Below are positions 22,326 through 64,000 of a DNA stretch of 64,000 nucleotides, one piece after another; position 1 is the stretch's first letter, and each line of letters opens with the position of its first letter. Origin of the DNA: Cyanophora paradoxa CCMP329 (lineage: Eukaryota > Plantae > Glaucophyta); contig QPMI01000015.1 in NCBI GenBank assembly GCA_004431415.1, positions 545,596 to 609,595 of the forward strand, read 5' to 3'. The position numbers were made by a program, and so were the translations under genes. The notes below the pieces were generated by a model. That model ran no database searches. It was not told the DNA's origin and saw nothing but the letters and a program-made list of their open reading frames with translations.

Positions 22326-22817
22326 CGCCCGCTGGTTCTGTTCGATCCGCGGCGCTTGCGGTCAGCAGACATCAACACCGCGGGCTAACGGGAAAGCAGC
22401 GCCGACCTCAAGATCTAGAGCTGAACCCACGCCGAGGCGCGCCGATCGAGCCCAGCGCTAGCGGGCCGACTGAGCCGCTTTCAAGCCGAGCCGCATGCGC
22501 AAGCAGAGACAGATCTAGATCTAGAGCTCGAGACAAGGCTTTGCATGCCGACACGAAATGTCTACCCCCCTAGCCTCCCCTCAACCCCCTGATATCGATC
22601 ATGAGCTTGAAGGGATCTAGATCTCCTCTAGATCTATAGCTACGTATACCCCTGGCCTTCCGCACTTCATCGCTCGATATCCGATGATCCCCTTCCCTTT
22701 CTAGTTCTGCCATCTGCATCACAGATTTTTTTAAAACATCACAAATTTGAAAACACAAAAACCGCATCACATGTACGCCCCCCCGCTGAGGGCCCCCCTC
22801 GGGCTCCGGGCCCCGCC

Positions 22818-23640
22818 TCACGCCGCCTCGATGGCGCGGATGCAGTCCACCACACTGCGCGGCGGGGCCCGGGGCCCGGGGCGCGGTCAGCGGCCCTCGC
22901 GGGGGGGCGGGCGCGGGGCGGGCGGGGGCGGGGGCGGCGGGGCGGGCCTGTCGCCGCGGAGGACGGCCTCCGTGAGGGCCTCCAGCGCCCCCGCGTTGAT
23001 CTTCAGCAGCGCCTGCCCGGCCCGACGCTGGGCTCGGCGCCGGGGGCCGGGGCCGGGGCCGGGGGGCGCGCACGGCGGCGGCGAAGACGCCCCACCGCGT
23101 CCGCTCCATCTGCTCCTTCCGCCCGATCGCCCTGCCGCCCGCCGGGGCGCCCGTTCAGCAAAGGGCGGGGCGGGGCGGGGCGGGGCGGGGCGGGGCGGGG
23201 GCAGACTGGGGCGCGGCGTTGAGGATGGCCTGCAGCTCGGCGAGGTCGGCCTGGCCGCCCCGCGCCTCGGGGTACTCCAGCCCCTCCCCCGCAATCCCGC
23301 TCATCGCCACCACCGTGCACCTGCGGGAGAGAGAATGTCAGCCGGGTTACGATGTTAAGAAAACGAGGAGGGGGGTACGCGCGTGTCGATCTGGTCGAGG
23401 GTGAGGCGGCCGCGGCGCCCCGGGGTCGTCGCCGCCGCCTCGACATCCACGTCCGCAAACTGCACCGCCGTCACCGCCGCCTCCGTCGTGTACCTGTACC
23501 CCGGTTGAGGGGGGAGGGAGGGCGCACGACTTGACGGGGAGGCCGAGGGCGTACCCCGCCAGGACGTGGCTCGCCTCGGCTTCTCTTAGAAAACGAGGAG
23601 TGGGGTAGTGGGGTACGCCCGTGTACATCTCGTGATGCCG
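22818..23640 (-). pseudogene. Partial copy of the VIR3-like gene with disrupted HEASH motif
   Basis: Matches 26242-27040 exon for exon. RHEASHF is interrupted by an insertion resembling the gene's own downstream intron start (TTAGAAAACGAGGAG..GGGGTACG), leaving AEASHV. Confidence 0.8.
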
Positions 23641-23729
23641 CGGCTTCTTCGAATTCGAATTTGAATTCGGGCGCTCCAAGCAGGGGTGTGGGAGAGGGGG
23701 GGGGAGGGGGAGGGGAGGTGGCGAGGCGG

Positions 23730-25768: not shown

Positions 25769-26241
25769 CGCCCGCTGGTTCTGTCACAGTGTTCGATCCG
25801 CGGCGCTTGCGGTCAGCAGACATCAACACCGCGGGCTAACGAGAAAGCAGCGCCGACCTCAAGATCTAGAGCTGAACCCACGCCGAGGCGCGCCGATCGA
25901 GCCCAGCGCTAGCAGGCCGACTGAGCCGCTTTCAAGCCGAGCCGCAAGCAGAGACAGAGCTCGAGCTAGACAAGGCTTTGCATGCCGACACGAAATGTCT
26001 ACCCCCCTAGCCTCCCCTCAACCCCCTGATATCGATCATGAGCTCTAAGGGATCTCCTCTAGATCTATAGCTTCGTATACCCCTGGCCTTCCGCACTTCA
26101 TCGCTCGATATCCGATGATCCCCTTCCCTTTCTAGTTCTGCCATCTGCATCACAAAAATTTTAAAACATCACAAAAACACAAAAACTGCATCACATGTAC
26201 GCCCCCCCGCTGAGGGCCCCCCTCGGGCTCCGAGCCCCGCC

Positions 26242-28085
26242 TCAGGCCGCCTCGATGGCGCGGATGCAGTCCACCACACTGCGCGGCGGGGCCCGGGGCC
26301 CGGGGCGCGGTCAGCGGCCCTCGCGGGGGGGCGGGCGCGGGGCGGGCGGGGGCGGGGGCGGCGGGCGGGCCTGTCGCCGCGGAGGACGGCCTCCGTGAGG
26401 GCCTCCAGCGCCCCCGCGTTGTTCTTCAGCAGCGCCTGCCCGGCCCGAGGTTGGGCTCGGGGCCGGGGGCCGGGGCCGGGGCCGGGGGCGCGCACGGCGG
26501 CGGCGAAGACGCCCCACCGCGTCCGCTCCATCTGCTCCTTCCGCCCGATCGCCCTGCCGCCCGCCGGGGCGCCCGTTCAGCAAAGGGCGGGGCGGGGCGG
26601 GGCGGGGCGGGGCGGGAGGGGCGGGGCGGGGGCGGACTGGGGCGCGGCGTTGAGGATGGCCTGCAGCTCGGCGAGATCGGCCTGGCCGCCCCGCGCCTCG
26701 GGGTACTCCAGCCCCTCCCCCGCGATCCCGCTCATCGCCACAACCGTGCACCTGCCCGCCAACGAATGTCAGGCGGGGTGAGCTGTTAAGAAAACGAGGA
26801 GAGGGGTACGCGCGTGTCGATCTGGTCGAGGGTGAGGCGGCCGCGGCGCCCCGGGGTCGTCGCCGCCGCCTCGACATCCACGTCCGCAAACTGCACCGCC
26901 GTCACCGCCGCCTCCGTCGTGTACCTGTACCCCGGGTAAGGGGGGTACGGGGCGCCGGGCGAGGGGGGGAGGAGGGCGCACGACTTGACGGGGAGGCCGA
27001 GGGCGTACCCGGCCAGGAAGTGGCTCGCCTCGTGCCGCGCGATGCGGCGAACGTAGTCGGGGGACAGGCGGTTGAAGCTGCGAGGGGGAGGGTACGTGAG
27101 ATGTGCCGGGGGAGGAAAGGCGCGGGGGGTACGGGGACGCACAGGTCGATGGGGAGGCGGAGGAGGCCGGGGTTGGTCGAGCCAATGCCGAGGAGGACGA
27201 GAACGGTACTACTGACCAGGTACGGAACGAAGAAGCTGCGGAAGGAGGGATGAGCCGGGTCCGGGTACGGGAATCATGAAGAGAGGGGGGTACCCGAAGT
27301 CGCCGGGAAGGTACGTGAGGAAGACGCTGATGACGGAGATGACGCCGATGTACGCGAAGGTCGCATTGCGCTGGCGGGTCGGAGGTTCAGGGGGGTATGG
27401 GATTTGGGCCAAGCGGGGAGGGGTACGGGCGGACCTCCTCGTCCGGGGTGGAACCGGAGAGCTTCTCGGGGTTTTTGATGCCGATCGTGGACAGGTCTCG
27501 GAGACCGATGTTGGGCCGGAAGACCTGCCTGGGGTAGCTCCCGAACCTGCGCGCCGCAGCGCTCGCTAGCGCCCCCGAGGGCGCGCGGGGCGAGCGGGGC
27601 GCACCGCTTGATGACTCCGGCCTCCTTCATCTCCGCGAGCTTCGAGGAGAGCGCAGCGAAGTCGCCCTGGGCGCGCACGTGCACTGTGAGCTGGGGCCGT
27701 CATAGAGCGCGCGCGGCCGCAGGGGCTCGGCGGGGCGCGGCGGGGTCGGCCGGTTCATTCGCCTCACCTTCTCGACGATAGCGCTCAGCGCGCTCCAGTC
27801 CGCGTCGTCGGCGGCCTTGGCCGGCGTGGACGGGCCCGCCTCGCTGGCCTCGCAGCGTGTGACGTGCGAGGGTCCGGCCTGGAAGCGCACACGGCGTGAA
27901 GCTGTCGCAGGAGCTACCGGAACGAAGCTAAAGTGCCTGCGGGCCGCCAGGCTCGCCGAGGAAGGCCGCACGTGTCCGCCCGCGGGCCCGCGGGCGGAGT
28001 GGACGGCCGAGCTAGAGCCGCCCCGCTGCACTCGCCGGATGGGCGCCGCAGCGACGGGAGAGATGGCGAAGGCGTGCGAGTTCAT
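26242..28085 (-). CDS. Plastid-targeted HExxH (FtsH/M41-like) membrane protein, VIR3/At2g21960 family
   Basis: Ser/Ala/Arg-rich transit peptide MNSHAFAISPVAAAP...VTRCEA; two hydrophobic segments (FAYIGVISVISVFLTYL; FFVPYLVSSTVLVLLGIGS); GSTNPGLL, PDYVRRIARHEASHFLAGYALGLPV, VAMSGIAGEGLEY, GQADL, RWGV...ALLKNN, SVVDCIRAIE. Family assignment is from recalled motifs. Confidence 0.85.
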
Positions 28086-28165
28086 TGCCGATGGGGGGAG
28101 TGAGCTCTGTCAGGGTACAAGCGCTAAAAGAGCAACGGTCCGGCCGCACGGCCCAGCTGGCCGGT
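28086..28165. promoter_or_regulatory. Putative bidirectional promoter/5' UTRs (80 bp between divergent ATGs)
   Basis: ATG at 28085 (-) and ATG at 28166 (+). Confidence 0.55.
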
Positions 28166-30581: not shown

Positions 30582-31150
30582 GCCGCCGAGTCGGTGGGCC
30601 GGGCGCCCTGCCCCGCCCTGCCCGCCGCGCCCCCGCGTGGACATGGGGCGGCCTCTTTCTGGCCGTGCCCTCAGATGCATGTCTAGGCCTAGGTAGAGTT
30701 TCTAGATCTTCCGATTATTTAGGTGGTTCCCGCATTCATGCGCTTCAATGTCAACGTCGCAAAGTCGGACTTCGAGAGCTTGCAATTGTTGAATCTTCGG
30801 AAAAGAAGTAACTGCGAAACCAGAATCTAGAACGATCTAATTGCATTTGAAATCGGCTGGGGCTGTATACGTACATGTGCCCAGCGGCCCTCTCGCGGCT
30901 CCTTGGCCACGCGTACGTGCACGGCACCGTCAGGGCCTCTTCCCCCGGCGCCGCCGGGCCGGGCACCGTCCGACGGTCAGAGGTCTGATGCCTGCCCCCG
31001 GCCAAGTACTAGTGGCCAGGTCGGCAAACGCTGTGACAGGGCCCCCGCCCCTCTCAACTCCGCCGGGCCGAGCCCGCGATGCTAGCAGCTCGGCGGATCC
31101 GGAGGCGGCGCGGGCGAAGCCCCGACGACGATCATGATCTTGCACTGCTT

Positions 31151-33139: not shown

Positions 33140-33353
33140 CGTCCTCGCGCTCCGCGTCTCGCGCTGCCGGCCGAGTTGCGCGGCCGTGGACGAGGCTCGG
33201 GTGGGCGGAGCCCCGCCGGCGCCCAATCAAGTCCGCAGAAACAGCCGCAACTGCCGCAGCTCGCTCCGACTTCAGTGTCAACTCACTGCGTCGGGGGTAC
33301 AAGGACACAAAGGGTACGAAGGGGCACTGCTGGCCACAACGCTTCCGTGAACG
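33140..33353. promoter_or_regulatory. Putative bidirectional promoter (214 bp) between JMJD7 and F-box copy D
   Basis: Divergent ATGs at 33139 and 33354. Confidence 0.45.
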
Positions 33354-35343: not shown

Positions 35344-35730
35344 CCGCCCCGCCACCTCTCTCTTCCCGCTCGCCACCTCTCCGCCCCGTCGCAACCCCCC
35401 TCCCCCCCCTCCCCCCTCGAGCTCGCTACGTATACCCCCCCCCTTCGCGCTACCTTCCCCTCGCTACCGCCCCCGCTCCCCGCACCCGCCCCTTCCCCCC
35501 CCCGCCCCCCCCTACACCTCCGGATCCCATGACAAGTGCACAGGGCGCATCGATGCATCGCTTTCTCCCCCCCTTTTGCGCCCCCCCCTCCTCCCCCCCC
35601 CCCCTTTGCCCCCCTCCCCTCTCCCTCTCCTTGGGCGCATCGATATCGATTGGTTTCCTTTCTTTCCAACGCGCCGCGGCACATGTGCACACACGCACGC
35701 GCGGGCGGGGCCGGCCCCGCCCGGCGGCCC

Positions 35731-38700
35731 TCACGGGTTGGCGTACCACGGGGAGTCCACGCTGCGGGCGGCCGGGGCGGCGTCAGGCGGGGGGCCGGGG
35801 GGCCGGGCCGAGGCAGCCTCTCTTCTGGGGGCGGGGGCGGGGCGCCTGTAGGCGATGGCGTCGGGGGCGGTGGCGTGCATCGCGTCGAAGGCGAGGCGCC
35901 CGAAGCACGAGGAGAGGGTCCCCACGAAGTGCTGCCCCCGCGAGAGCAGGTACATGCTCGCCAGCGCCCCCAGCGCGTTCACCTGCCGCCACGCCCGCCC
36001 GCTCGGCGACCGGCCGGCACGGGCCAAGAGGAGCCGAGTCGGGCAGCGGGCGCTCTAGAGGAGAGGGAAGGGCGCCTCTGGCGGCCCCGCGTCGCCCGCC
36101 CCCCGCCCCCTAGCCCGGCGCCTGCCCCACAAGCCGCCGCGCGGGGTCGGACCTCGAACTTGAGGAGATCGAGGCCGCGCCGCTCGGAGCGGTCGTACAT
36201 GAAGCGTACCCCGGGGAGCTCCCCCGCGGCCCCCGCCAGCTCCTCCGCCACGTCAGCGTCCGACGATACAAAGACCGCCGCCGCGCCCGTCCGCCGCACC
36301 AGCGCCCGCAGCGCCTGCCGCGCGCGCGCGCCGCGTCGGTGCGAACGAAGGCGCGGGGGGTACGCGCAGCGGCACCTTGAGGTAAGCGGAGAGGGGGGGG
36401 AGGAAGTCGTGCTTGTGGAGGTGGGGGTCCCAGAGCGGTCCCACCGCCTCCAGCAGGTTCGGCCGGTCGTAGACCGCCTGGGCGGGGGCGTCAGGACGGG
36501 CAAGGGAAGCGTGAGCGCTGTATCTTCAGCGTAAGCGTTGTAGGACGCTCAAGCGGACCTTGTCGAGCTGCTTGCGGAGGTGGAGCGAAACGACGGGTCC
36601 CGTCTCCTGCCGTGCCGGGCGCCCCCGCCCGGTCGGAATGGGGCGGAGGGCTCGCTCGTCCAAGGGCGCGGAGGGGGCGCGCGCGAACCGCCGTCCAGTT
36701 CAAGGCGGCCTTGACGCGCTCGACGTGCTCCAGGATCTCCCGCCGCGGCCGGAACAGGAAGCTGGGATACCGAGGCTCAGAACGAGAGAGCAGAGGGGAC
36801 GAGAGAGGGGTACGGGCGCGCTTGACGAGGCGTGACTTGTAGAAGCGGAAGCCGAGGCGGCGGACCTGAAGAACCATATGTTAGCAGACGTCAAGATATC
36901 TAGACGATAGATAGTTAGATCTAGAAGATCTATTCTCTTGATTCAAACAAGAAGGCGGGGCTTGTAGACGCTTAAGCGGAAGCCGAGGCGGCGGATGCGG
37001 ACCTCGGGCCCGGCCGCCTCGGGCACCGCGTTGCGGAAGCGCGTCACCGCGCTGTGCGGGCCCGCGTGCAGCAGCATCTGCGAGCGAAGGGGGCGGGAGC
37101 GTGAGGCAGAGGCAACGGGAGCTGAGACAGCGGCGGGGGCCGCCCGCCCTGTCCCGCCGCTCCCTCAACGGCGGGGGCCGCCCGCCTCCCCGCCGGGGAG
37201 CGTAAGGCAGCGGCGTTGAGGGGTGTACTGTACCCCGCCCTCGCCCGCCCCCGCCCCCGCCCCCCTCACCTGGCTGGAGCGCCAGTGCTGCATGACGCGG
37301 CCGTCCTCGGGGCGGCAGCTCGAGGCCGGCTCGAAGAGGCACGTGAAGCCCTCCGTGCACGGCCGCCAGTAGTACCTGAGGCCAGCTTAGAGGTCAGCTA
37401 AGACTAAGCTAAGACTTCGTCCTTAAGACGATATCTAAGACTTAAGGAGGGGAGGGGAGGGCCGGGGGCACCAGTCGTTGGGGGAGGCGGTGACGAGGGT
37501 CCAGTTGCGCTCGTGCGCCACGCGCAGCGCCACGCTCATCCAGTAGATGTGCGCCCCTGCGAACGAAGCTGAGCTGAGCGGGGCCAAACAATGCTGAGCT
37601 TTACACAGCTAGAGAAGCTCTTAAGACCCAGCAAGCAAGCAGGGCTACGCTGAGCTTAGAAGCGAAGCTAGATAAGCTCTTCTCGAGGTGCGGGGCGGGC
37701 GGACCGAGGCCGAAGCCCTTCTCGAACTCGAAGAGGATGAACTGGCGGCCGGCGCACGAGGCCGGGAACTGCATCGCCCGCAGCTGCGCGGCGCGGGGCC
37801 GGCGCTCAGCCGGTCAAGGACAGGCCGATCCCTAAGGGGCTTCTGGTTCGGCAGGCCGGGATCGAGGCCCAGAGGTCTATGCTAGACCTCGGCCGCGGCT
37901 CTTATCTTAGCGCTAAGCGAAAATGTTAGCTTAGAGGCAGGGCGCAAGGTCAAGGCTTAAGGTGCGCTTTAGGCTTGAGGCTGGGTCGAGCGCCGCGCTG
38001 AGACTTCGTCGTTCGCGCCTGGGCGTCGAGGTCGGCGGCGGCGGCCTCGGAGACGAGGCGGGCGTCGGTGCCGGGGAAGCCCCAGCCCCCCGCCACCACG
38101 AACGCCTCCTGCCCGGGAGGAGGGATCAGAGAGGGGGCGGAGGAGGGGTAGGGGTAGGGGCGGGCGGGGCGGACGGTGGCGCGCTCGTAGATGACGGCGG
38201 AGCCCGGGGCGAGGAGGCCGCGGGACTCGAAGGGGGGGCGGCCCCGGGCCCCCCACTCCCACGCGTCCGCCATCGCCTCCTTCCGCGCCGACTCCTCGCC
38301 CCCGACCTGCAGCAAAGAAAGGAAATCAGAGCGAGCTTAAACGTAAGCTTAGCTTAAGTAAGATTAAGTTTAGTTTAGGACCTGGGCGAAGGGGTTGCCC
38401 TTGTAGTCCATGGCGAAGGCCCCCGAGGTGCGCGAGGCGGCGCGCCCGCGGGAGACAACCACGTCCTCGAAGTCCCGCGGCGGGCCCGAGGGCTCGCAGA
38501 GCAGCTGGTACCCCCCGCCGGACTCCTCCGGCAGCGCCCGCGCGCGGTAGGGCGCGCACTCGCGCTCGCCGACGAGGGCGGCGAGGGCGGGCGGGGGCGG
38601 CGGGGGGCGGCCCCAGGGGGCGAGGTGGCTCGCGCGGATCGCCACGAGGCCCTCCTCCGAGCGCGCCTCGAAGACCGTCGGCTCGAAGAGCAGCGGCGAG

Positions 38701-39874
38701 AGGACCAGCCGCCCCGCCCCGGCCCCTGCCCCGGCCCCGGCCCGGGGGCGGCCGCCTCAGCCACGAGCACGTCGCCAGGGCACCAGCCGCCGCCGGGGGT
38801 ACACTCCTCAAGCGTCAGCACGGCCGCCTCGCCGCAGCCGACGGAGGGCCCCGCCGCCCCGCCCAGCGAGACGCGCAGGCCGGAGCCGGCCGGGCACTCC
38901 AGCCGCGCGTACACGGCCGCGTGGACGGCGGGGCCGAGGGCGAGGGCCCAGCCCGGCTCCGCGGAATGCTCCTGGGCGGTCTCGAACCGGGCGTCGTACT
39001 CGACGCGGAGGGGCGGGGCGCCGGGGGCGCCGGCGTGCTCGACGAGGAGCACGGGGAAGTCGGCGTCGTGCGCCGGGTCCCACAGGCCGTGCCGCGCCTC
39101 CGCGACCGCCACGCCCTCGCCGGCGTGCGACCGCGCCGCGTCGTACCCCGCCACCCGCCCCAGCTGCCCGCCGCTCGGCGTGGGCGGGCGCGGGCGGGCG
39201 CGGGGGCTACAGCTACAGCTACGGCTGCGGGGGCGGGGGCGGGGGCGCACGGTTGGGATGCTTTCGAAGGCGAGGACGCCCATGAGGTAGTACCGGAAGC
39301 GCTGCTCGTTCATCGAGCGCACCCGGTACCTGCGCGCCGGCCAAAGCGTCGGCGTCGGCCGCCGCGGAGCGGGGGCGCGGGGCGCCGGAGCGGGGCGCAC
39401 GAGTACATGCAGGGGCAGCGCTCGTTGCGGAGCGGGGCCAGCGCCGCGAACTCCGGCTGCGCCATCGCGATCTGCGTCCCGCTGTGCCGCGCCAGGTTCA
39501 CCTTGTTGCGCCCGCCCGACACGACCCGCACCACCGAGTCTGCCGGCGCCCGCCCGCTGCGAGTCAGCTCCGGTGGCGGCGGTGCGACCACGCGGGATCA
39601 TCGGCGCTCAGGCTACAGCTCGGCTACGCGCGGCCGGTCTGACGGGTCGGCGCGTGCTCTCCGGCACCGCAGCGGTGCGACCGAGCGGGATCATCGGAGC
39701 TTAGGCTCGTGCATCGATGCTAGGCGCGTGCGGCTCGGCCGATCGGCGGGCGCCGTGCTCACCCGCGCGGACTTCGTGCGCTGCGATGCACAGGAGCAGC
39801 AGCTGCAGAACATATCCTCGTATCCGCAGTCGCCGCTCTGCCGCCCACGCGGGCCCGCGCCCGCTGTGTCTCAT
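35731..39874 (-). CDS. GT23/FUT8(NodZ)-like alpha-1,6-fucosyltransferase with long N-terminal luminal region
   Basis: N-terminal hydrophobic GYVLQLLLLCIAA. C-terminal exons KGFG..GAHIYWMSVAL, FTCLFEPASSC, SFLFRPR, VVSLHLRKQLDK, VFVSSD, LASMYLLSRGQHFVGTLSSCFGRLAF, SVDSPW. The 5' exon structure is uncertain. Confidence 0.65.
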
Positions 39875-39980
39875 CTTTCGACCCGGGAGTGACCTGGGGC
39901 GGGGTACACATCGAGCGAGATGGCCGGGTCCTCGAGCGGGCAGCCGGCGCTGCCGATAACGCCGCCCGAAGCGTTCAGAC
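39875..39980. promoter_or_regulatory. Putative bidirectional promoter (~106 bp)
   Basis: Divergent ATGs at 39874 (-) and 39981 (+). Confidence 0.4.
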
Positions 39981-42900: not shown

Positions 42901-45900
42901 CTAAGGCGGCGGCAGCGGGCGGACGAGCTGGCTCGGCGCGTCGAGGCGCAGACGGCCCGCGTCGCCGCCGAGGCCCAGGCGAGCCCCGCGCCGCGCGCCG
43001 CGCGCCCCGCCGGGCCGCAGGCTGTACATCGGAGCCGGGGCGGAGCGTGAGAGATCTCTCTCTCGAGCTCCCCGGATCAGAGAGCCGGGGCTGTACATCT
43101 AGGGCTCTCTCATGCTCCGCCCCGGCCCGCCTTGATCCGGCCCGCAGCGTGCGCGTAGCGCCCTGGAACCGGCCGAGGTCCGTATCCGGATCGGCGCCCA
43201 GCCCCTTCGTCCTCCTCAGCTCCGCCCCGCCTGACTTCCGCCGCAGCGGGAGCTGGAGGAGGAGCTGCGGGCGGCCCAGGAGCGCCTGCGGGGGGCCTCT
43301 GACAAGGCAGCCCGCGCCCCAGCCTTCCCCGCGAGTCTAGTAGATCTAGAGCTAGTCTAGATCGCAGGCGCCGCCCCGCTCACTCGGCCCGGCCCGCGCG
43401 CAGCTCCCCGAGGTGGACGCGGCGGTGGCGGAGGCGGAGGGGGCGGCCCGTGGCATCCGAGTGCGCGGCTGCTGCGAGCCGCAGCCCCGCCCCGCCCTTC
43501 GCGATCGTGTGCCTTATCGTTTGCGCGCAGGGCCAGCTGAGCGACGTGTACGAGAAGGTGGGCGTCTAGCGCCGCTCAAGCTTCTAGCTTGTGCTCGCTC
43601 TGCGGCGCCCGGTCTAGCTGTGTCTGGGTCTAGATCTGGATAGCTATAGCCCATAGCCGCGTACGGTCTGGTTGCAGATCTAGCCAGCACTAGCTAGTCA
43701 AGCCCCGCGCGCGCGCGCGCGCGCGCGGGGGGCGCGGCCTGCAGCCGATCGCGATGCGCGGATCCCCGGCAGCTGAACCGGACGAGCCGTGACCGCTACC
43801 TGCTCGCCTCGACGCTCGCCAACTACCGCAGCCGCTTCGGTGCGGCCGGATTCGATGCGAGATCTAGAGCTCGAGGCTAGCGCGTGATGCTAGCGCTGCT
43901 AGTGGTCGAGATTTGATCCGCGGCTGGGCGCAGCGGACTCGATGGCGCAGGCGGGCCTCTGCAAGCGGCAGCTGCGCGCCGCCGACGCCGAGCTCGCCAA
44001 AACGTGCGCGCGTGGACGGGGCCCGCGCCCGGCAAAAAGTGGGCGCCCGCGGAATAGAGGCGGGCCCGCCGAAAAACTGGTCTGTGCAGGGATCGAACCT
44101 GCGACCGTGGCGTTATTAGCACCACGCTCTACCGACTGAGCTAACAGACCGATGCGAGATGTGATTTCTTTGGGAGGCTGGTTTCCCGGCAGCTTTGCTC
44201 CGCCGTGTGACCTCCACTATGCTCCAGTCGCTCGGGGGGCGGCGGAGCGCGGAGGCGGCGGCGGGGCCCGAGGCCGCCCTGGTCGCCGAGCGGCGGGCCG
44301 AAGAGCGCCTCGAGGAGGTGCACGCGCCGCGCTGCTCAGCGCTCTCTCAACGCTGACGCGAAGCCGAACGCGTACGCAGGCCATGCGGGGACTCCGCGCA
44401 GCCGGCCTGGGCCTGGGAGGCGGGCCCGTCGCTCCGGGGGCGCCAAGTAGCGCGTGCGCTGCGCACGCGCGCGCCCCGCCGCGCCGCGCGCACCGCTCCA
44501 GTCTCGAGCCAGCGCGGCAGGCCGGCTCGGGAGGGCGCGCAGCCGCCGCCGCCGCTGGGCGAGATCGAGCGCGAGAACGCGGCGCTGCTCGCCCAGGCGC
44601 GACGCGCTCGGCTCCGCTCTGGAGACAGGCCTGCTCCGCTGACATTCCGCGCCTGTCTGCGCGCATGCGCAGGTCCAGGAGATGCGGCGGCGCCTGGAGG
44701 GACGCCCCGCGGTCCCGGGCCCCGCCGCTCCGCCTCCGCCTCCGCCGCCTGCGGGCGAGCCACGGCCGAGCGAGTGGGAAGCTTTGGAGGAGCGGCTCCG
44801 CTGCGAGGCGCCGGCCGCGGGCCAGCCCGAGGCGCGCGCCTCTCCTCGCCCCTCTCCTCCTCCTCCTCCTCTCTGACCTGGGCCCCCGCAGCGATCGCTC
44901 CTGGGGCGCGCCTCCGATGTCCTCCTGTGGCCCGCCCGCGCGGCCGGGCGCGCCGCCTCCCGCGGTGCCCGCTCGCCTCCCCGTTCGCCTCCCCGTTCGC
45001 CTGATCCCCCCTCCTTCTCAGGCGCCTCGGCGATTGCGGGGGCGTTCAACGCGGCGGACGCGCGCGTGCGCTCCGCCGCCGATACCGCCGTCCACGCCGT
45101 CGCCGGCGGTCCGTCTTCGTCTTCGCTCCTTGCTCCCGTTCCCCTCAATTCTACTTCTCCTCCTCTCAGGGGCCCACAAGGCAGCCGACGCGGCCCGCTC
45201 CGCCGAGCACGGGGCCGAGGACGCCGTCCGCGGTCCGCCCGATTGCGCCCTCCGGCCCGCCCCGCAGCGCAGCTCCTCCCCGCCCGTTTGTCTTACTTGC
45301 AGGCGCGGTCTTCGCAGGCGCTGCCCGGGCCGTGAAGCACGGCGCGCGCGCGTCCCCTCTCCGCCTGGGTTGCGCTCCCTTGCCTGAGACGGCGCCGCCG
45401 GCGCCGCGCGCAGGCGGTGAGGCCGTCGTGGACGCCGCGGAGGACGCGGCGGTCTCTGCCGCCTCCGCCGCCGGCCGCGCCGCCCGTGCAGTCGCCCACG
45501 GCCCGCCCCGCCCTTCTACCCTCTCCTGCTCTTGGCGCCGCGCCCGTCTCAGGCTGCCGCCGCAGGGGGAGAAGTGGTGGTGGACGGGGCGGGCCGCGCG
45601 GTGCACGGCGCCGAGGACGCCGCCGCCGCCGCCGCGCGCGCCGCAAAGCGACGTGCGCCCCTCCGCGCCCCTTCGCTCTCCTCCCACTCACTCCGGCGCA
45701 GGCGCCGGCGCCATCGTCCACGGGGCCGAGGAGGCCATCGCCCGCGGTGCGCCGCTCAGCTCACTCTGCGGCCCCCGCCCCGCCCCGCCCACTCCTCCGG
45801 GGCAGGCGCCGAGGCCGTCGGGAGCGCTGCCTACGCCGCCGGCGACGCCGCCCTCCGCGGTGCGCGTCCTGAGGTTCGACAGAGGCCGCCGGACCTGACT

Positions 45901-52837: not shown

Positions 52838-55609
52838 CTAATTTCGGCTGCTCGGAGGCCGCTCGAGGGGCGGCAGGCGGACGCTCTGGCCCCCGCGGCT
52901 GGGGGCGCCCCTGCCCCCCACCGCTCCCCCCGCCTCTGCCCCGGAGTCGCCCTCCTCCTCGGCCCTCCGGGAGGGGGACGGGAGGCCCGGCGTCGGGCCG
53001 CCCGGGCCCGCCGTCGCCAGCGCCCGCAGCTCCTCCGCGTTGCCCCGCGACGAGAGGCTCACCATACGCATCTCCGGATCCGAGCCGCCGCTGCGGGCGC
53101 CCGGCAGCAGCGCCGGAGCCGCCCCGCCCTCGCCGCCGCTCTCGCCCTCGGCCTCGGCCTCTGGATCCCTGGACCCGGGGTCCAGGACAGCGATCCGGGG
53201 CAGCTCGGCCCTCGCGCGAGCCCCGCCCGCCTCCGCCGCCTCTTCCGCGGCCTTTTCCCTCTTCTTCTTCTTCTTTTTCGCCGCGTTGCCGTCGTCGCCC
53301 TCATCCTCCTCGATGCCGACTTTCGCTGCCCCGCGGTCCTGCGCGGCGCCTCGCCGAGTCAGAGGAAATGAGGGAGGGGGGATGGGAAGGGGGCTAGGGT
53401 GCCTTCGCCGCGTCCACGACGGCCTCCTTCCCGGCCTGCGCGCACGCGCCCGAGGCGGCTCGATTCTCGAGCTTGTTTTTGAAAGAGGGGGGTACGGCAC
53501 CTCGGCGAAGGCGCCCCCCGCGGCGTCGCCGGCGCGGGCGACGCGGGCGGCGGCGAGGAGCTGCTGGCCCGAGGGGAGGGCCATCGGGCCGAGGTCGAGG
53601 TGCAGGCCGGGGTCCAGCCGGCCCAGCTCCGCCGCGTGCACCCTGCGCCCGGCCGAGTGAGCGAGGTTGAGGAGACTGTCTATTCGTGTTCGCGTTTCTC
53701 TGCCAACGATCGTGTGCTTTGCTTTTCGTTCGCGGCGTGGCGGGCGGGGGTGTGGGGAGGGGGGGGTGGAGGCGGGGGGGCGAGGGGGTACCGGGCTCCC
53801 GACTTGGCAGCAGCGGCGGCGCGCGCCGCGAACCGCGCCACAGCGGCGACCGCCACCGCCACTTGCTGCCGAGTGGAGGAAAAGAGGCGTTGAGGGGTAC
53901 GGTTCCGCGCCGACTGGGGTGTACGCGCACCGAGAGGGCCGGGATCATGAAGCGGAGCTGGTCGGCAAACAGCGCCACCGCCCAGCCGAAGTTGATCCCG
54001 TTCATCAGGAGGGAGACCTGCTCGGGGGTACGTGAAACTCTCGCTTAAAAACCAGGGGTACGCCTAGCGGGGTGCCGCACGCGGGGGAGGGAGAGGTTGA
54101 TGGGGAGAACGGGTAGGGACGGCGCGGAGGGGGAGGGCACGAAGTTGAGCATGAGGACGAGCACTGCGCGCGAGAACGAAGGGAAGCGAATTCAGAAAAG
54201 CGAACGAAGGAAAGGGGGCGCCCGGGATTCGAACCGGCGGTCTGGGAGGCGAGGGAGCCGGCCTCCATGAGGTTCTCGATGCGGTCGCGAAAGGGCCGCA
54301 CGGCGAGGACGAAGAGCAGGTGTACCCCGTGGATCCCGATCAGCGCGCAGATCTGCCGGCCCGCCTCCAATTCTCAGCCACGCTTGGAGTACGGGCGGGG
54401 CTGGGAGGCGGCTGCCTGGGCGAGGGCGACGCCTGGCGACGTGCCCGAGGGCAGCAGCGTGGATCCCGCCGCGCCGCCGTCGGGCAGGGCAGAGGACGCG
54501 GACGAAGCGGCGGAGGAGGCGGCGGAGGAGGCGGAGTGGATGGCGGAGGCGGAGGAGGCGGCGCCGCCGACGAGGAGCCCCAGCACCGCCGCCGTCGCCA
54601 GGCGGTTCAGCATCGACACCACCATGTACAGGTACCTGGGGGGGGGAAAGGAGTCAAGGGGGGTACAGGGTTACGGTACGGTACGGCCGCACGCGAGGCG
54701 GTCGGGGCCGTAGGCGTCGAAGGTGGGCGAGAAGGCGTCGAACCACCACTGGCCCAGCTCCCGCGTCCGCTTCTTCCCCTGCAAGGAAAAGTCAGATCAG
54801 AGCCCGCGGGGGTAAGCGGCCGAGTTCCAAATGGGGAGGGGGGTACCAATATTCGGTCGCGGGCGGAGGGCTTGGGGTCGCCGGGGTCCCCGGAGGCCGC
54901 CTCGGGTACCAGGTACGGGTTCAGCGTCCACTCCCCCGTGTTCCGGAACAGCTTGTAGATCTGGATCAAATTTAAAAGCAAATAAGCTTAGTTCGAAACT
55001 CAGATCCGATTTTAGGCTAAGATTGGTAAGCTGCGCACCCCCGCGGCGCGCTTGACGTGGAGCTTGAAGCGGCGGAAGGCGCGGCGGAGGGCGGCGAGGC
55101 AGCCGCGGCGCTTGCCGCGGCCCCGCGCGGCCCCGGGCTGCGGCGTCTCCCGCTCCGGCTTCTCCTCCTCCCCGCCGCTCTCCGCCCCGTCCTCCTGCGA
55201 AGATGAAAGACAGGAACGATGAGAAAGAGAAGAATACATAGTTGACAGATAGGAGCTGAAGCGTGCAGGCTGCAAGGGCAGGGGGGAGGGCGCGCCTTGG
55301 CGCCCTGCGTGGCGAGGAATGCGCGGTACTCGCGCCACGCCGCCCTGGCCTCCGCGAGCGTCCAGCGGCGGTAGGCGACCAGCTCGAGCCGCTTGATGCG
55401 CGTCTGCAGCGGGGCGGGGCGGCGGTCAAGCCTGGATGGAGCGGCCGCGCGCGGCAGAAGAGAGCAAGCATCGGGGGCGCGACCCCGATCTAGATCTAGA
55501 GCGGAGCGGAGGGGAGCGGAGGGGAGGGAGGGAGGGAGGGAGGGAGGGGAGGAAAAAAGGAGAGGAGCGGGGCGGAGGGGCGGATCCGGACCTGCAGGGG
55601 CGAGGAGGG

Positions 55610-55643
<34 letters not shown>

Positions 55644-58600
55644 AGGGGGAGGGGCGGAGGGGACGGACCTGCAGGAGGACGGCCATCGCGACGGCGAAGG
55701 CGAAGGGCACCAGCACCTGCGGGGATCGCGGAGGAGGAGGAGCTTGAGCTTAGCTTCAGAACTGAAGGACTCGTCTCGAAGCCTGAGCGTGAGACTTGTC
55801 TATAAACGTGACTCGACTCGCTAACTTGGACTTTATGACTCGCTATATGTGACCTAACCGGCTGTTCGAAGGGGCCGGCCCGGCGGGGGCGCACGAGGAA
55901 GACGGCGGCGACGGCGGTCCAGGCGGTGATGCCGGCGCGGAGCACCGAGCACGCCGAGATGCACATCCCCTGGATTGTGTGCGTCAGTTCGAAGCCGGGC
56001 GCCAGTTCGAATTGTCGGATTGTTTCGCATAGCTTATTTGATTCGTCGTTCTCTTGATAGCTTAGATTGGCTTAAAGTTCGAGAGGGGGCGGACCGAGTA
56101 GGCGAAGTCGACGACGGCGAGCTCCCAGCGGGGGAAGGCCAGCGCCCCGCCCAGCCGCCGCCGCCTGCGTGAGAGGGCGCGTGAGACGCGGTTCGATTTT
56201 ACGTGTGGAAGGAAGAGGCGTGCGGGGGCCGCCCGGCCCGCTTTGGGCGGGGGGCGAAGAAGAGCGAATCGCTACATCCTCTTCTAAGGCCCAGATCTAA
56301 GGTCTTCTAAGGTCTTCTTTTTCTAAGAGAGAACTCAGTAAGGAGAAGCCGGCCTCCTAATGGCGCACTTGAGCCTGCGTGCGAAGTAGAGGTGGACGGC
56401 GCCGTGGGCGAGGAGGACGGCCGCGAAGAGGAGCGTCGAGTAGAAGAGGAAGGAGGAGAAAATGTCCCCCACGCCTGCCGCGCGGCGCGATGAGCTCAAG
56501 GAGTTCATGTTAAAACGGTGAGCTAATGCTTTATTTAAACATGATACGGAAAGGAAAGGAGTTCATGCTTTTTTTAAACAAGCTAATGCTTAAAACGGAA
56601 AGGAGTTCATGCTTTATTTAAACAAGATAAGCTAAATAGAGCGAGAAACGCGCACTGCAGCGGGCGGTGTTGGAGGCGAACTCCCCGATCGAGTGGAGCC
56701 TCCGCGCCGCGGCGGCGGAGGTCGCGGCGGAGGTCGCGGGGGCGGCGACCGAGACAGCGACGGGCTTGGAGCACCACGGCACGTCGAACTGCGCGAGGGA
56801 GGGTCGCGCTCATGATCAGATGAATATTAGGTTGAGATAAGACTCAAGTTTAGGCGAAGTCCAGTACGAAGTAGTTTGAAGCTCAAAAGAAGTGTTATGG
56901 CTCTAATGACAAGCCCACGGCGGGGGCGGCGGGCCTGGAGGAGGGTCCAGCGGAGGGCGCTGGTCATGCCGGTGTACTCCTCCGGCAGCGAGACCGCCAG
57001 GAAGCTCGTCGCCGCCACGAACTGGGGCGAAGAAGATAGAAAGCTCAGCGAAGACAAGCATCAAGGAGCAGCGATGATGGCCATGCTATAGCTATCTTCA
57101 CGCTCCAGTTTGGAGCTCAGAAAGCGCACTTGGACGTGGGTGATGATGCCCATGGAATTGGCGCCCCCGCGGGGCGCCTTGGCCATGGCGTTGGCGCCGC
57201 CGCCGGCCCCCGCGTTGGCCCCCGCCGCCCCGCCCCCCACCGCCCCCGCGTTCGTCGGGACGCCCCCGACGCGCCCCGCGCCGGCCGCGAGGCCTGGCCC
57301 CGCCGGCCGCCGCCGCCGGCGCCACCGCCGCCGTGCCCGTCATGCCGCCTGCGCCGGCCGCAGGTAAGAAAGAGTTGCAAGGGGCGCGCGCATGTACTAA
57401 GCACCCATGGCGTCGATGGTGCCGGCGGCGCCGCCGCTGGCGACCGCGCTGCTGTTCGCCATCGCCGACGAGACCACTGACGAGAGAATTACTGCAGATC
57501 AACGCAAGTTCGACGCATCGGATCGGACCGAGGGTGGAGGTGGGGAGGGAGCTGGCGGCGACGGTCGCGGCGGTGGCGGCGCCGCCGACGACGCTCGCGA
57601 CGGCGCTGACGACCGTCGCGGCGACGACGACGGCGACGGGCGCCGCGACGATGGCCGCCGTCAGCGCCGAGGCGGCGTTGCCGAGCCCCGCCGAGCGCTC
57701 GGCCGCCGCCGGGTCCTTCTCCACGACGCTGAACTCGAAGACCGCCTCCGAGGACGCCAGCGCGTTGTCGAAGGCCTGCGGCGTCTCTGATCATGAGCAT
57801 AGGAACGAGCTCCTTGTTCGGTTGGGCCTCTTTTTAATTTTATGTTCTTGTTTGTTTTTCAAGAACGAGCTCCTCTTTTTTAATGTTGGGATGGGCAGAG
57901 TTAGCTCAAGAAACTGTTGTTCAGTTGGGACTCTTTTTTAATCTTCTTGCTTGCTAAGAGATGTTAATAGGATCTCTTGTTCCGTTAATATAGGGCGCAC
58001 GCGGAGCGTGAAGGCGTAGAGGCCGGCGGCGGCGAAGGCGGGGAGGACCAGCGTCGAGCCCGCGAGATCGGCCGCCCCGAGGGCGAGGGCGGGGCCCTTG
58101 GTCTGCGCCCACCGCACGCTCGCCACGTACCCGTCCGCGTCGTACGACGACTCCGAGCTGAGCGCCACGCGCGCGTCGATCTGCGAGGAAATTTAGCAGG
58201 AGAGGGGGGTGAGAGATAGATGAGGGGGTACTGCCGCACCGGGAAGATGGCTCCCAGGAGGTTCACGGAGATGACGGCGACGGGGGCGAGGTTCGATCCC
58301 GAGAAGGGCAGAAGCGAGGCCGAAATGGAGGTGACGGGGTACCCCAGCACGCCCGACGCGGCCCCGCTCTGTAGGGCGTTCACGCGGGCCAGGACCGCCG
58401 CCGCCGAGTCGGAGGCGGAGGCGGCCACTCGGAACGTGTACGCCGTCGAGGAGCCGGCCGCCTGCTGCTGCTGCTGCAGGCTACGTGCACGGCGGGCGGT
58501 GCCCGCCGAGAAGGTGACGCCGAAGATGCGCTCCTTCTGCACTGAGAGGAGGATTCCCGTGTTGTTGAGGAGGCGGAGCCGGTCGGGGGCGCTCGAGGCG

Positions 58601-61600
58601 GGCGGGAACTGCCCGAGGGGCACCCCGAACGTGATCGTCACCCGCACGTCTGCGTCCAAGCCGGGCGGGCGGGCAGGGGGCCGTCAGCTCCCGCTCAGCT
58701 CCACGACTAGACCAAACGAGGGCGTACCCGGGCTCTCGCGGACAGAGACGAGGTAGGAGGCGGCGGCGAAGGGCGACCCCGAGGCCGCGATGGCGAGGTC
58801 CACCTGCGATTTCGAAGCGGGGGCGGGCGGCGAGGCTAGGCTCAGCTAGGCACTAGGAGGGAGGGGGGTGCACGCGCCTGCCAGTCGCCGGAGCGGAGGC
58901 TGGAGAGGCGCGCCGTTTCGCCGATCCCGAGCGGCGCGAGGGACGGCAGGGAAGCGGCGCCCGGCCGGGGCGCCAGGCTCCACGAGAAGGCCAGCGGCGA
59001 CCCCGCGGGGGGGAAGAAGCCTTCCGCCGCCCTGGGCGCCGTCAGGTTCACCTGAGGAGAATTCAGGGACGGGGGAAGGGGGGGAAAGAGCCTCCGGGGT
59101 ACGCAATGCACCTCGGTGGCGGGGAGGAGTACGGTGATATTGAAGGAGAAGGAGGTGGCGGATGGGAGGGTACCATTCGGCGCAGTTGTTTCGTTCGCGG
59201 TCGCGAGGACGAGGACGAGGAAGGGGGCGGGTACGGAGATGCCGCCCTCGTTGTCGGTTACGGTCAGGTTGAAGGTGTAGTTGCCGGGGGTAGGGATGCC
59301 GGGGACAGTGGGGGCCAGGCCGGCGAAGCGTACCCCGCCCCGCGCCCACGACCCGCCGGCGACGGCGCCGTCGGCGTCGAAGGAGCGCGAGCCGTTGAGG
59401 ACGAAGGACGCGTTGACGGGTACGACGAGGGGCGCGGGGGGTACGACGGCGATCGGGAGGAGGTTCGCGGCGATCGCGAGGGCGACGCGCGCGGGGGAGG
59501 CGTCGAACGCGGTACCCCCCGCGGAGAGGGCGAAGAAGGAAAGGGAGTACGAGGCGTTGGAGCCGCCGAGGCCGCGCGGGGCGACCAGAGTGACGTTGGC
59601 GACGGCGCGGACGGACGTCGCGTTGCGGCCCTGCGAGGCCTGCAGCGGCGCCGCAGCCAGCTCGAACGAGGCGGGGAGGGGTACGGGGCCGAAGGAGGGG
59701 CCGGGGGACACGAGGACGGCGGGGAGGGGCGCGGGGGAGGGGCCGGCGAGGGGCGAGGCGAGGGCCGTGAGGTTGGCCGAGAGGGGGGCGGCGGCGGTGT
59801 GCGAGAGCGTGACGAGGAGCCAGGACGTAGCGCCCTCCCTAAGGGAGAGGGCGGAGAGGGAAGAGGCCAGGTCAAGGCGGGGGCGGGAGACATTGAAGGG
59901 CGCGAGGGCGAGGGCCGGGTTCGGGAGGAGCGTCCGGAGCCGAAGCGTCCCCTGCGACACGCTCTGGTTCGCCGCGAGAGCCGCAGGCGCGGTGGGGTAC
60001 ACCGTCCGGTTCTCGTTCGGCAGCTGCGTGGGGGGAGGGGTCAGGCGGGGGCGAGGGGCGCGGGGGTACGGGGCACGCACGAATGCGCCGGTGCCGAAGG
60101 AGTACACGTCGGGGGAGGAGGAGACGGAGAGGGAGGGGTACGCGAGCGCGCCGGCGCCGACGGCGATGGGGCGCGCCTCGGCGATCCGCACGACCGGCGA
60201 GGGGGGTACGAGGGCCTCGCTGGAGGGTAGCCAGAGGGCGGCGACGGGCCAGGAGGGGTACGACTTGCTGTACAGGGGGGAGGAGACGGTTGGAGATGTG
60301 TCCGACTGGGCCGTCATGTTCACAGCCGCGTCGGTACCCCCCACAACGAAGAGAACGCCCCCAGCGGCGGCCATCGAGGCCCCAAAGAGGGGTGCCGTCA
60401 CGTTCGCCTGCGAGGGGGGTACGGGTTAGAACATCTGGGGGTACGGTGATCACAGGGGGTACGGTACCTCCTTGACGGCGTCGTCGAGGGAGAGGGGGAA
60501 GCTCTGGAGGAGGGCGGCGGTAGCCCCCGGGAGGCCCGACACGGTCAGCCGGGACCAGACGGCTGTACCCCCCTGGCTCCGCAGCACCCAGGCGTCCGAG
60601 AGCGGCGCCGAGGGCGACGCCGGATCGTAGCCTGTCGAGAAGCGTAAGCGGCCGAGGAAGAAGAGGGAGGGGGGGGGAAGTTGCGGGGGGTACCGCCGTA
60701 GATGAAGACGTCGGTTCCGCGGGCGGCGATCCCGAAGAAGGCGCGGGCGGGGGGGCCCTGCGCCGGCCCCGCCGCCCACGCCCCCGCCCCCGCCGTGTAC
60801 AGCGCCGTGAGCGCGAGCGCCGGCCCCTTCAGCGGCGTCGCGATCGCCGGGTCCTTTGCCATACCCCCGAAGAGCACGAGGCTGTACCCCGCGTCGGCCT
60901 CGACGGCGACCATGCGGTGGCCGAAGAGGCCCTGCGCGTAGTACCCCGAGGGCAGCGCGGGGCCCTGCGCCCACCGCTTCGTCGCAAGGTCGTACACGAG
61001 TGTGTCTGACGAAGGAAAGTCACGGAAACTAAAAAGAAGCGCCGCATGCGCAAATTAATGTTGCTGGGGCCGCACCGGCGTACGGGATTACGGTGTCAGA
61101 GTACCCCACCTCGGAAAAGACGCGCACGATGCCACCCGTCACGTACAGCTTACCCCCCAGGGCCGCCATCGCCGCCTGGCGGCCGATGGCATCAGAGCGC
61201 GTCTCTGCAGACGGGAACGGATCCCGAGCGGACCAGGCAGCGCTGGATTGTAATAACACAGCGCGACCTCATTATCCTATAGATTTTTCGGAGTTAAAGA
61301 ATCCTAAGTTCATAGAGTTGGAGTGTTTATATTAAACCGCGGTCTTATGATTCTATACATCTCATATGGTTTAAGTTCAACCCAAGGATCTGATCATGAG
61401 CGGAGCCATCACGGACCAGGCGGCGCTGGCGGAACGGGTTGGGGGCGACGGCCGCGTCCGTGTCGTTGGCGGCCTCCTCGGCCCACTTCCACGTCGTCGT
61501 GTCGAGGGCGCTGAGGAGTTCCGTGCCCACGCCGTTCTCCTTGAGCCCCCCGAAGACGTACACTCTGCGCCGCCGGCGCCGCTCCCCCGTCAGGGTCGAG

Positions 61601-64000
61601 CGGGATCGATCGGCTTCGAACGCGCTGCGCACTTCTCGCCAACGGCGGCGGCGGCGGCGTGCGAGCGCTGGTCGGTGAGGCCCGAGTGGCTGGCCATGCT
61701 CACGTGCACGCCGGTCTGCGGGCGGGTGGGGCCGGTTTGAGTCAGCCAGCGTGGATCCGAATCGCTTCGAGGGGGCGCACCGCGGGGTCCCACATGGCCG
61801 TCCGGTCGCTCGCGATTAGCCAGAGCTTGTCCCCGACGGCCTGCGAACCCGCTAAGAACGACGAAAACGCAAAGCGTAGCGTAGCCGGGGCGCACGAGGA
61901 GGGCGTCGTGGGGGGCGAGGGTCAGTGAGGCCGTCCAGTTCGCCCGGTGCGCCTCCGCCTCGGCGGCCGGCAGGTACGACTGCACCGCCCCGCGCGCGAG
62001 GGCCCCGGCCGGCGCCGCCGGCAGCACGGAGAGAACCAGCGGCTCAGTGAGGGTGGAGGTGCCGCCGGCCTCCGTCAGGAGCAGAGAGACGTTGAGGCCG
62101 CCGTGGAAGCCGGCGGGGGCGGCCGCCTGCGTGGCCGGGCACTGCACTTTGTAGAGGACGGCGCCGCCCGTCAGGTTGCCCGAGCCGGCGATCGTGGCGG
62201 CCGCGTCCGAGAGGCCCACGCGGCAGCGGAGCGTCGTGTCTAAGGGCAGCGCTTTGCCGCTCATGAGCGCGACCTGCGGAGGGTACGAGATGATGAGAGG
62301 CGGGACGCTCAAATCAAACCAAAGCATTAGAGGTCGGCCGCGGGCCTCGAGGGTGAGGGAGCCCGTGGCGGGGAGGGCGGCGGCGCTGGGCGTGAGGGAG
62401 AGCAGCGTCGGGCCGCTCTCGAGCGTCGCGTTGCGGGCGACGCGGCTGAAGGCGCGCGCCGGCCACGCCGAGGACGTGAAGGCGACCAGCAGGCCCGCCT
62501 CGACGGAGAGCGGGCCCGGCCAGCGCGGCGCGCGGCAGTCGAAGGCCGACGCGTTGCCGGGCACGGCCGCCGCGACCAGGGCGAAGGGCACGCCGGAGAG
62601 GATGCAGGAGCGCGCGGCAGAGGCCGGCGGCGCGGGGTTGCCGGCCGGCACCACGCGGAAGCGGCCGCCCTCGGCCCGCGTCACCGCGCGCGGCGCCACC
62701 TCGCTCTGCGTGTCCGAGACCTCTGCGGGCTACGCGTGGGCCGGGGCAAAGGGGGGAGGAAGCCGCGGGAAAACGGGTACCGTAGAACTCGAGGGGGGTG
62801 GAGATGGACGCCCAGTAGGAGGCGGGCTGGACGATGGCGGGCGGTGCGGAGAGGGCGAGCGCCTGCACCCCCCGTCCCGCGAAGCCCTCCGGCGTCGCCA
62901 GCGTCAGCTGCAGCGACGGCGGGTCGGCCACCGTCGAGCCGGCCTTCTGCACGATAGTGCCCCGCGAGGTGTTAAACCCGGGGCCGAAGGAGACCACGAC
63001 GGGCCCCGAGAGCATGAAGGGCGTCGCCGCCGTCGCCTGGAGCAGCGCCCGACGGAAGCTCGCCGTCGCAATGTTGAGCCCGTTGCCGGCCGCTGGAATC
63101 GTGTAGAGGCCCGGAAAGGTGGGGAAGCCGGGGGACGGGCCCAGGGCGAGTCCCAGAGCGGCGTCGGCCGCGTACGGCGCGAACTTCTCGTCGAAGAGGG
63201 GCGAGCCGCGGGAGGGGAGGCGGGCCTCGGGGGCGGCGAGGGCGAGGGAGGCGAGGCCGGCGTCGCAGGCGCCGGCGGCGATGCCGACGTCGTCCACGCT
63301 GAAGTACACGTTCGCCGCTGCAGGCGGGAGCGCAGGAGCCCGTCAGAGACTCTTTCCATCGCTAAGGCCAAACCAAACTGCACCCGCACCGGAGGGGAGG
63401 GGCTCGTTGCCCCCGCTTTCGCCGCCGCTGAACGAGTCGCTGAAGTCCGCCACGATGTAGATCCGCACGTACGGCGACCACCTGCGCGGGGCTGAGGGGG
63501 GTAGAGGGAGGGGAAAGGCAGGACAAGCGTACCCCTGGAAGGTGACGTAGTGCGTCTGCCAGGTCCCCCAGGCCGCGAGGTCCAGCCTGGGGGGAGCGGA
63601 GTGGCTCATATGACAAGTGCGATCAGATGGGAGGGAGTCGGAGAACGCGGCGCGCACGGCTTGAGGAGCATGCAGGAGGAATCGGCGAAGTCCGTTCCGA
63701 CGAAGTGCGTGTTCTGCGAGTTGGAGGGGCCCCAGACCACCACGGGGCAGGCCGCCGTGGGGGTTCCGATCCCCCGCACGATGTCCCAGGGCCTGTACCC
63801 CGGCGAGTCGACGTCCCACGAGAACTTTAAGCCCACGAAGAACTTCGCCTTCGTCTCGTTGAACGCCCCGTACTGAATTGAAATGGAAGAGGCGTGATTT
63901 AGGGGGGGGGTACAGGAGAAAAAGGTGAGGGGGGTAGGAGGTAGGGCACCTTGACGCGGGCGGCGAGGCAGGAGGGACCCGTGATGGGCACGTGGATCGG
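52838..64000 (-). CDS. Large surface protein: IPT/TIG-like + Kelch repeats + PKD-like + SEA-like ectodomain, then multi-TM region (fungal TRP-like/FLC type); 5' end beyond the window
   Basis: Kelch motifs (VYVFGG, LYVTGG, LVLFGG, VFIYGG, LFVVGG); PKD-like LNGSRSFDADG..PGNYTFNLTVTDNEG and SSESSYDADG..VRWAQTKGP; TM region (IITHV|QFVAATSFLAVSLP, YLVVSMLNRLATAAVLG, LLFVLAVRPFRDRIENLME, GINFGWAVALF); charged tail; stop at 52838. Confidence 0.75.
56500..56640. repeat. Intronic AT-rich tandem repeat (AAGGAGTTCATGCTTTATTTAAACAAGCTAATGCTT-like, ~3 copies)
   Basis: Repeated GGAGTTCATG, GCTAATGCTT and TTTAAACA blocks. Confidence 0.75.

Follow-up and report, generated by a model that had tools for sequence, protein, structure and literature searches.

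Why would a short DNA word be written over and over into a eukaryotic nuclear gene, in its introns and at synonymous sites of its codons? The question arises from 64,000 nucleotides of the glaucophyte Cyanophora paradoxa CCMP329 (assembly GCA_004431415.1, contig QPMI01000015.1, positions 545,596 to 609,595), hereafter the window. An earlier note, made from the letters alone, had described in it patches saturated with GGGTAC and its complement GTACCC. We find that the finished word GTAC, above all GGGGTAC, is favoured in gene-body domains of 1–3 kb, free of orientation and about ten times more strongly there. All motif statistics refer to this single 64-kb window of one contig, which is 70% GC and has short GT/GC-AG introns; a tandem array at 7,850–14,350 was masked in every motif count.

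Between 58,220 and 61,110 we counted 26 sites (17 GGGTAC on the forward strand and 9 GTACCC), where base composition predicts 1.8, or 1 per 1.6 kb. The earlier note had estimated about 25, with the same split between strands, against about 1 per 1.5 kb. Its figures for other sub-regions (about 10, 9, 3 and 2) hold up equally well: there are 11 sites at 26.70–27.43 kb, 9 at 53.48–54.91 kb, 3 at 1–7.8 kb and 3 at 39.9–47.3 kb. The full GGGGTACCCC palindrome that it placed at 58336 is present (58336..58345, exonic, encoding Gly-Tyr-Pro) and is the window's only copy. Altogether the window holds 82 sites, versus 16.4 ± 3.7 in 100 dinucleotide shuffles, the largest of which reached 27. Markov models fitted to this region produce 1.6, 2.0, 7.6 and 13.0 sites at orders 0 to 3, and 26 was reached in 0 of 300 runs at each order.

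The patches also stand out when only the ends of G-runs (three or more G) are considered. TAC follows 26 of 161 such ends at 58.2–61.1 kb, and 11 of 42 and 9 of 76 in two other patches. In non-patch DNA it follows 0 of 102 at 54.9–58.1 kb, within the same gene, 20 of 1137 at 27.4–53.4 kb, and 3 of 171 and 7 of 560 in further stretches. Permutations stratified by run length placed 26 in any 3-kb window in 0 of 5000 trials (maximum 19). A two-state hidden Markov model (HMM) of TAC at G-run ends, to which the borders drawn in the earlier note were not supplied, returned five segments (23.2–23.7, 26.6–27.5, 53.6–54.9, 58.1–61.2 and 63.8–64.0 kb), with TAC after 15.2% of G-run ends inside them and 1.4% elsewhere. 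The log-likelihood rose by 30.4, whereas none of 20 shuffles gained more than 0.7. When all 5- and 6-mers were ranked for patchiness in a conservative scan, GGGTA came 1st of 512 and GGGTAC 3rd of 1335, with p marginal after multiple testing.

Short-read contigs from three runs cover the motif region; for example, X2 is identical to the window over 55,664–60,131 and X1 over 60,388–61,370. Contigs of two RNA-like runs consist of exon pieces, also with identical letters; these two runs, which gave spliced pieces, are RNA by guess, since none of the runs is recorded as such. Because both kinds of contig show the same letters, a sequencing artefact is ruled out. The motif excess and its patchiness are real within the window.

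A single host gene (52943..63997, minus strand) holds both the main patch (58094..61162; 27 sites, 26 of them within the borders of the earlier note, 18 exonic and 8 intronic) and a second patch close to its 3' end (53490..54933; 9 sites, with the HMM segment starting at 53,612). The motif-free stretch between them (54911..58093) serves as an internal control, its introns averaging 148 nt and 46% AT versus 65 nt and 34% AT. The gene is longer than 11 kb, with about 40 introns and predicted membrane segments, and its 5' end lies outside the window; weak Kelch and PKD-like matches are all under the Pfam cut-offs. Gene models come from a simple splice parser whose exon ends agree with the RNA-like contigs, and one of them matches the deposited protein P0004 (tig00000076_g2455) almost end to end. 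The third patch (26632..27471, 11 sites) lies in a gene model whose product has a HEASH motif and is presumably peptidase M41-like. A small patch at 23201..23686 (5 sites) is mostly a duplicate of 26.7–27.0 kb and hence not independent, and an edge segment at the window end (63763..63988) is weak, with 2 sites for 15 G-run ends. The window has a 1.9-kb duplication (21.7–23.6 versus 25.1–27.0 kb, 90% identical), and its junction at 23,580–23,625 carries a templated copy of 23,355–23,390 in which GGGGTA occurs twice. The gene at 35,700–39,900 is intermediate in motif density, with 8 sites (3 exonic versus 0.7–0.9 expected) and no patch called by the HMM.

Does the word enter exons against codon preference? 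The 803 codons of the main patch contain 18 sites, where synonymous shuffles yield 4.1 with the local codon pool (maximum 11 in 3000) or 2.8 with the outside pool. At protein positions that permit the motif it is present in 18 of 29 cases in the main patch, 5 of 10 in other patches and 15 of 125 outside. Where a rare codon (GTA or NGT) is required, it appears in 10 of 21 main-patch cases and 3 of 102 outside, an odds ratio of 30, with paralogues counted in the outside set. Once five redundant paralogue models are removed, no 6-mer of patch exons is more enriched than GGGTAC (23 versus 5.8 expected). Both orientations are enriched equally, with 12 versus 3.3 for GTACCC on the sense strand and 11 versus 2.6 for GGGTAC. 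Outside the patches the top 6-mer, from the same reduced set, is GGGGTA (16 versus 4.9), and therefore a weaker form acts across the window.

The 912-nt exon (59112..60023, minus strand), which RNA-like contigs span over 59,109–59,689 and 59,791–60,023, carries 8 sites, 7 of them built of rare codons: GTA CCC four times, GGT ACC twice and GGG GTA C once. The exon codons quoted in the earlier note are correct, but their pattern covers only part of the sites: 10 of the 18 exonic ones in the main patch use a rare A/T-ending codon, and 8 use the ordinary Tyr codon TAC. That note had named two outcomes that would speak against its idea, namely loss of the excess once G-runs and amino acids were controlled for, and equal use of GTA-CCC inside and outside patches. 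Neither occurred: the excess stays after both controls and on both strands, and GTA is the codon before CC in 6 of 10 patch cases but in 1 of 28 elsewhere. The data support what the note proposed, a force at the level of DNA that is regional and strand-symmetric and prevails over codon preference.

The word itself can be defined more closely. Where the codon ahead of TAC has a fourfold degenerate third position, patches show G there in 22 of 24 cases, compared with 30 of 141 ahead of other codons starting with T; the corresponding figures outside are 35 of 67 and 132 of 531. Fifteen consecutive cases from 61,979 to 59,552 are all G, and where the 6-mer is impossible, G still precedes TAC in 13 of 15 patch cases. 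This preference runs against the local skew toward C. Without an extra G, the density of GTAC per kb is 2.7 in patches versus 1.6 outside; with at least three G, it is 6.9 versus 0.6. The target is GTAC, boosted by a flanking G-tract and graded GTAC < GGGTAC < GGGGTAC. Other 4-base palindromes of patch exons show no enrichment, except mildly TGCA (8 versus 4.1). Only the 4-base core of the word is palindromic; GGGTACCC occurs twice among the 82 sites, and CGTAC is the commonest form of GTAC in the window.

Introns and splice sites are affected as well. Main-patch introns have 6 internal sites in 464 nt versus 0.33 in shuffles, and GTAC is the splice donor of 6 of 20 patch introns versus 8 of 140 others. 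The 60-nt intron predicted by the splice parser at 60408..60467 (minus strand) combines a GTAC donor with three tandem CCGTACCCCC copies. The intronic sites of the earlier note are thus there, although some of them coincide with the 5' splice site, which corrects the note. On the sense strand every one of the 20 intronic patch sites reads GTACCC; many are at most 12 nt from the donor, and 4 form it. Apart from this word, introns and spacers have dialects of their own at 36–38, 42–44, 47.4–48.0, 51–52.8 and 55.8–58.0 kb. These consist of short self-complementary repeats (TCTAGA, GATCAT, TACGTA, TTCGAA, CTAAG) and 40-nt imperfect repeats, and an intron has more 8-mers in common with its neighbours than with introns farther away.

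Which process could produce such patches? The word was reached from several neighbours by opposite base changes, in exons, introns and splice donors, over a weaker background throughout the window. Rare codons take G>A, C>A, C>T or G>T, and G before TAC takes C>G; because these are opposite changes, a single type of mutation is insufficient.

An artefact of composition, amino acids, gene models or sequencing has next to no probability. The borders were first set by eye, the region is rich in Pro, Gly and Val, and the gene models come from a splice parser; the G-run, codon-shuffle, HMM and dinucleotide controls, the independent contigs and the match to P0004 nevertheless refute it within the window. 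Deamination, by which methylated GCAC/GTGC or CpG beside G-runs would decay to GTAC, is extremely unlikely. The papers cited here and below were available as excerpts, and what we take from them holds for those parts. C. paradoxa has 32% mCG (methylated CG), higher toward the ends of expressed genes (PMC12344493); GTG>GTA and GGC>GGT both amount to C>T when read on one strand, and one frame of the precursors is lower in patches (nGC|AC, 4 versus 8.6). GCAC/GTGC overall, however, number 26 versus 29.0 expected, CpG observed/expected is 1.03–1.07 in patches, the TpG/CpA proxies are almost equal, and the C>G change lies beyond deamination, so this account is largely refuted. Since opposite changes reach the word and neither its C>T precursors nor CpG are depleted, it is the finished word that is favoured and not a product of deamination. 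Double deamination of CG to TA was also tried and rejected, with one doublet only in the paralogue alignments and CpG not depleted; alignments of the window's paralogues gave no direction of change. Selection on RNA, in which GUAC words act in splicing as donor-like elements or GGGUAC pairs with GUACCC in the transcript, seems very unlikely to us. The uniform sense of the intronic sites, their closeness to donors and the shortness of patch introns would fit it. But exonic enrichment is equal in both orientations, the intronic orientation follows from C-rich introns, and inverted neighbour sites have no extra complementarity. Quite unlikely, too, is local self-templated copying (slippage, template switching or templated insertion), which would spread a seed word to near-matches and create region-specific dialects. 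In its favour are the tandem copies in introns at 60,408–60,467 and 54,636–54,692, the roughly twofold sharing of 8-mers by introns less than 400 bp apart relative to distant pairs, and the duplication junction described above, whose templated copy includes the word. Yet the flanks of sites 41–300 bp apart are no more alike than those of distant pairs, direct or inverted; with the motif removed, exons share words with near and far introns at 1.13 versus 1.08; and the CTAG, CTTA and TAAA patches of introns stay out of exons (intron–exon word correlation r 0.08, with the 58–60 kb bin excluded for too few intron bases). Moreover, patches separated by 26 kb have the identical word. Among 33 tandem-repeat rows at 52–64 kb none is an array of it, and flanks are unrelated beyond 40 bp. 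Templated mutation, suggested in the earlier note, is not supported as a general process, flanks and intron/exon words showing no local copying into exons. Completion of palindromes by template switching was rejected for exons, where other 4-base palindromes are not enriched.

A neutral ratchet, after Elhai's model of the cyanobacterial word HIP1, is a possible but doubtful explanation. A site-specific enzyme or protein would mark the GTAC strand, and repair or gene conversion would fix it where heteroduplex is frequent; the marking enzyme might have acted only in the past or belong to an integrated virus. Such a process would account for the word arising out of all its neighbours and invading splice donors, for the excess of motif-permitting dipeptides, and for both the kb scale of the domains and the weak signal elsewhere. 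Patches contain two of the window's duplication ends (27,032 and about 59,903), though many others lie outside. To our knowledge, eukaryotic mismatch repair is not methyl-directed, which counts against it. So do the published methylation data. C. paradoxa has no AMT1, and N6-methyladenine (6mA) at ApC is 0.006 (read as percent), below two other species lacking AMT1, in the excerpted part of PMC12695648. GTAC makes up 9.1% and GGGTAC 1.7% of ApC in the window; these bulk values argue against an active GTAC adenine methylase in cultured cells, and the earlier note's suggestion of methylation at GTAC is not supported for present-day adenine. Non-CpG 5-methylcytosine (5mC) is near background, and the available part of PMC12344493 reports two DNMT1 and one DNMT3, with no orphan DNMT and no PF01555 methylase. 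In bulk numbers, N4-methylcytosine or 5mC confined to GGGTAC, where about 0.2% of C lies, would go unnoticed. Elhai's model also saturates near 1 site per kb (PMC4390886), against about 9 per kb here. A ratchet independent of methylases is rather unlikely: a site-specific repair or conversion factor would write GGGGTAC into kb-sized glaucophyte domains, overriding codon bias, donor consensus and at times amino acids, and the patches would map the factor's action, as recombination tracts or origins.

Our best reading, held tentatively and at somewhat less than even confidence, is that weak selection keeps clustered GTAC/G-tract words as sites of a putative DNA-binding factor. A DNA-reading protein of this kind would recognise the word, and the graded strength of the flanks resembles a binding preference. 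Weak selection, with a scaled strength near 3, and not biased repair, would fix the word; the clusters would act on chromatin or replication in the domain, not on a promoter. Selection has a precedent in HIP1, whose codons show more conservation than codon effects explain (PMC5861425).

Several observations weigh against selection for a bound factor. The binding protein is purely putative, and about 9 sites in every kb, evenly distributed along 3 kb of exons in the middle of a gene, do not look like an ordinary enhancer. Motif-permitting dipeptides are mildly over-represented (30 versus 19.6, p 0.016), which fits a fixation bias equally well. A 10-bp phasing of sites in the main patch (p 0.036) comes from a band picked post hoc and is absent from other site sets; gaps of 50–90 bp are in excess (11 of 21, p 0.003, also post hoc) and by eye are not seen in other patches. 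SBP/SPL proteins read GTAC and GTACGG (10.1101/2024.09.13.612952), yet the SBP count is 0 for the 2012 Cyanophora proteome in the excerpted part of PMC5737466, and the family is treated as green-lineage (PMC4827209). A second genomic copy of window positions 59,903–61,370, about 5–8% diverged, begins inside the 912-nt exon and appears as contig bubbles in three runs. None of its 36 listed substitutions (58,900–61,150) falls in 84 motif bases, where about 2.5 are expected, in a list that is incomplete where copies collapsed. The rare CTA CCC of the window at 60,225–60,230 is GTA CCC in this copy, and a site present in the second copy and absent from the window means that sites turn over. Counted by hand, 20 of the 30 differences in its exons are nonsynonymous, hence one copy is weakly constrained.

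How do the patches compare with known systems? HIP1 (GCGATCGC) and the alternative HIPs are cyanobacterial words with a palindromic core, found in coding and non-coding DNA (PMC4390886, PMC5861425). The likeness is close: a short word with a palindromic core is over-represented in and between coding sequences, in all frames and beyond codon preference, as we find in the window independently of codon use, and selection and a repair ratchet are the alternatives for both. The differences are as plain. Here nuclear genes of a eukaryote are involved; the word is asymmetric, with one full GGGGTACCCC palindrome among 82 sites and a palindromic core of 4 bases where the HIP1 type has 6–8. Sites concentrate in 1–3 kb patches at about 9 per kb, and the two states of the window replace the genome-wide spread of HIP1 near 1 per kb. 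The excerpted bulk data for C. paradoxa also give no matching methylation or candidate enzyme.

DNA uptake sequences are explained by a drive model of their own. In Pasteurellaceae and Neisseriaceae, as far as the excerpted sources go, a non-palindromic word is likewise favoured as a finished product within genes; there it is genome-wide, whereas here it is patchy and no DNA uptake system is known. Repeat-induced point mutation and CpG decay bring a regional gain of TpA. That gain is seen here too, but precursors are not depleted and C>G contributes. Elements of the SBP/CuRE type share the GTAC core and a flank preference (10.1101/2024.09.13.612952); our sites differ from those of SBP/SPL in their C-tract flank, GTACCCC, in their position in gene bodies and in the SBP count of 0 for Cyanophora. 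Unlike tandem repeats or microsatellites, the patches are not built of head-to-tail copies with shared flanks. The GTAC patches behave like HIP1 or uptake-sequence drive, yet are not a member of either.

We found no report of this motif in Cyanophora in the literature, of which our coverage is incomplete. Exonic small RNAs are reported to be widespread in this alga (PMC3700990). A triple-GGGGTAC pattern gave at least 121 loci each in viral and prokaryote collections, 161 of them scorable by length; we inspected the 8 most dispersed of the 161, and the densest are tandem or peptide repeats. In one viral contig (L056), positions 1,270–1,560 hold repeated A-tracts and GGGGTACCCC palindromes in a short stretch. 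A metagenome scan with the 912-nt exon as query found 13 loci at 26–42% identity, PKD-like relatives only, and no related locus. Protein searches returned two distant PKD proteins for the 912-nt exon and no match for the cupin exon.

Other features of the window deserve mention. The masked array is about 6.5 kb of an error-rich 12-bp unit, with Pro-Ser repeats if translated, in a REJ-domain gene. At 16,700–35,350, four F-box/LRR-like (leucine-rich repeat) gene copies are interleaved with two 3' fragments of the 26.2–28.1 kb gene, and GTAC before Tyr is mostly avoided there (2 of 17). A tRNA-Ile(AAT) lies on the minus strand at 44,078–44,150, within a plus-strand gene region, and a piece resembling a tRNA 3' end at about 54,215–54,245.

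Bacterial genes can carry driven short words, such as HIP1 and uptake sequences, and whether selection or biased repair drives them is still argued. Here a nuclear genome has the same behaviour and switches it every few kb within one gene, which provides built-in controls. Codon bias and splice-donor statistics of this genome should be used with caution, being shaped by a DNA-level word. Altogether, the patches point to a putative sequence-reading factor in the earliest-branching plastid-bearing algal lineage.

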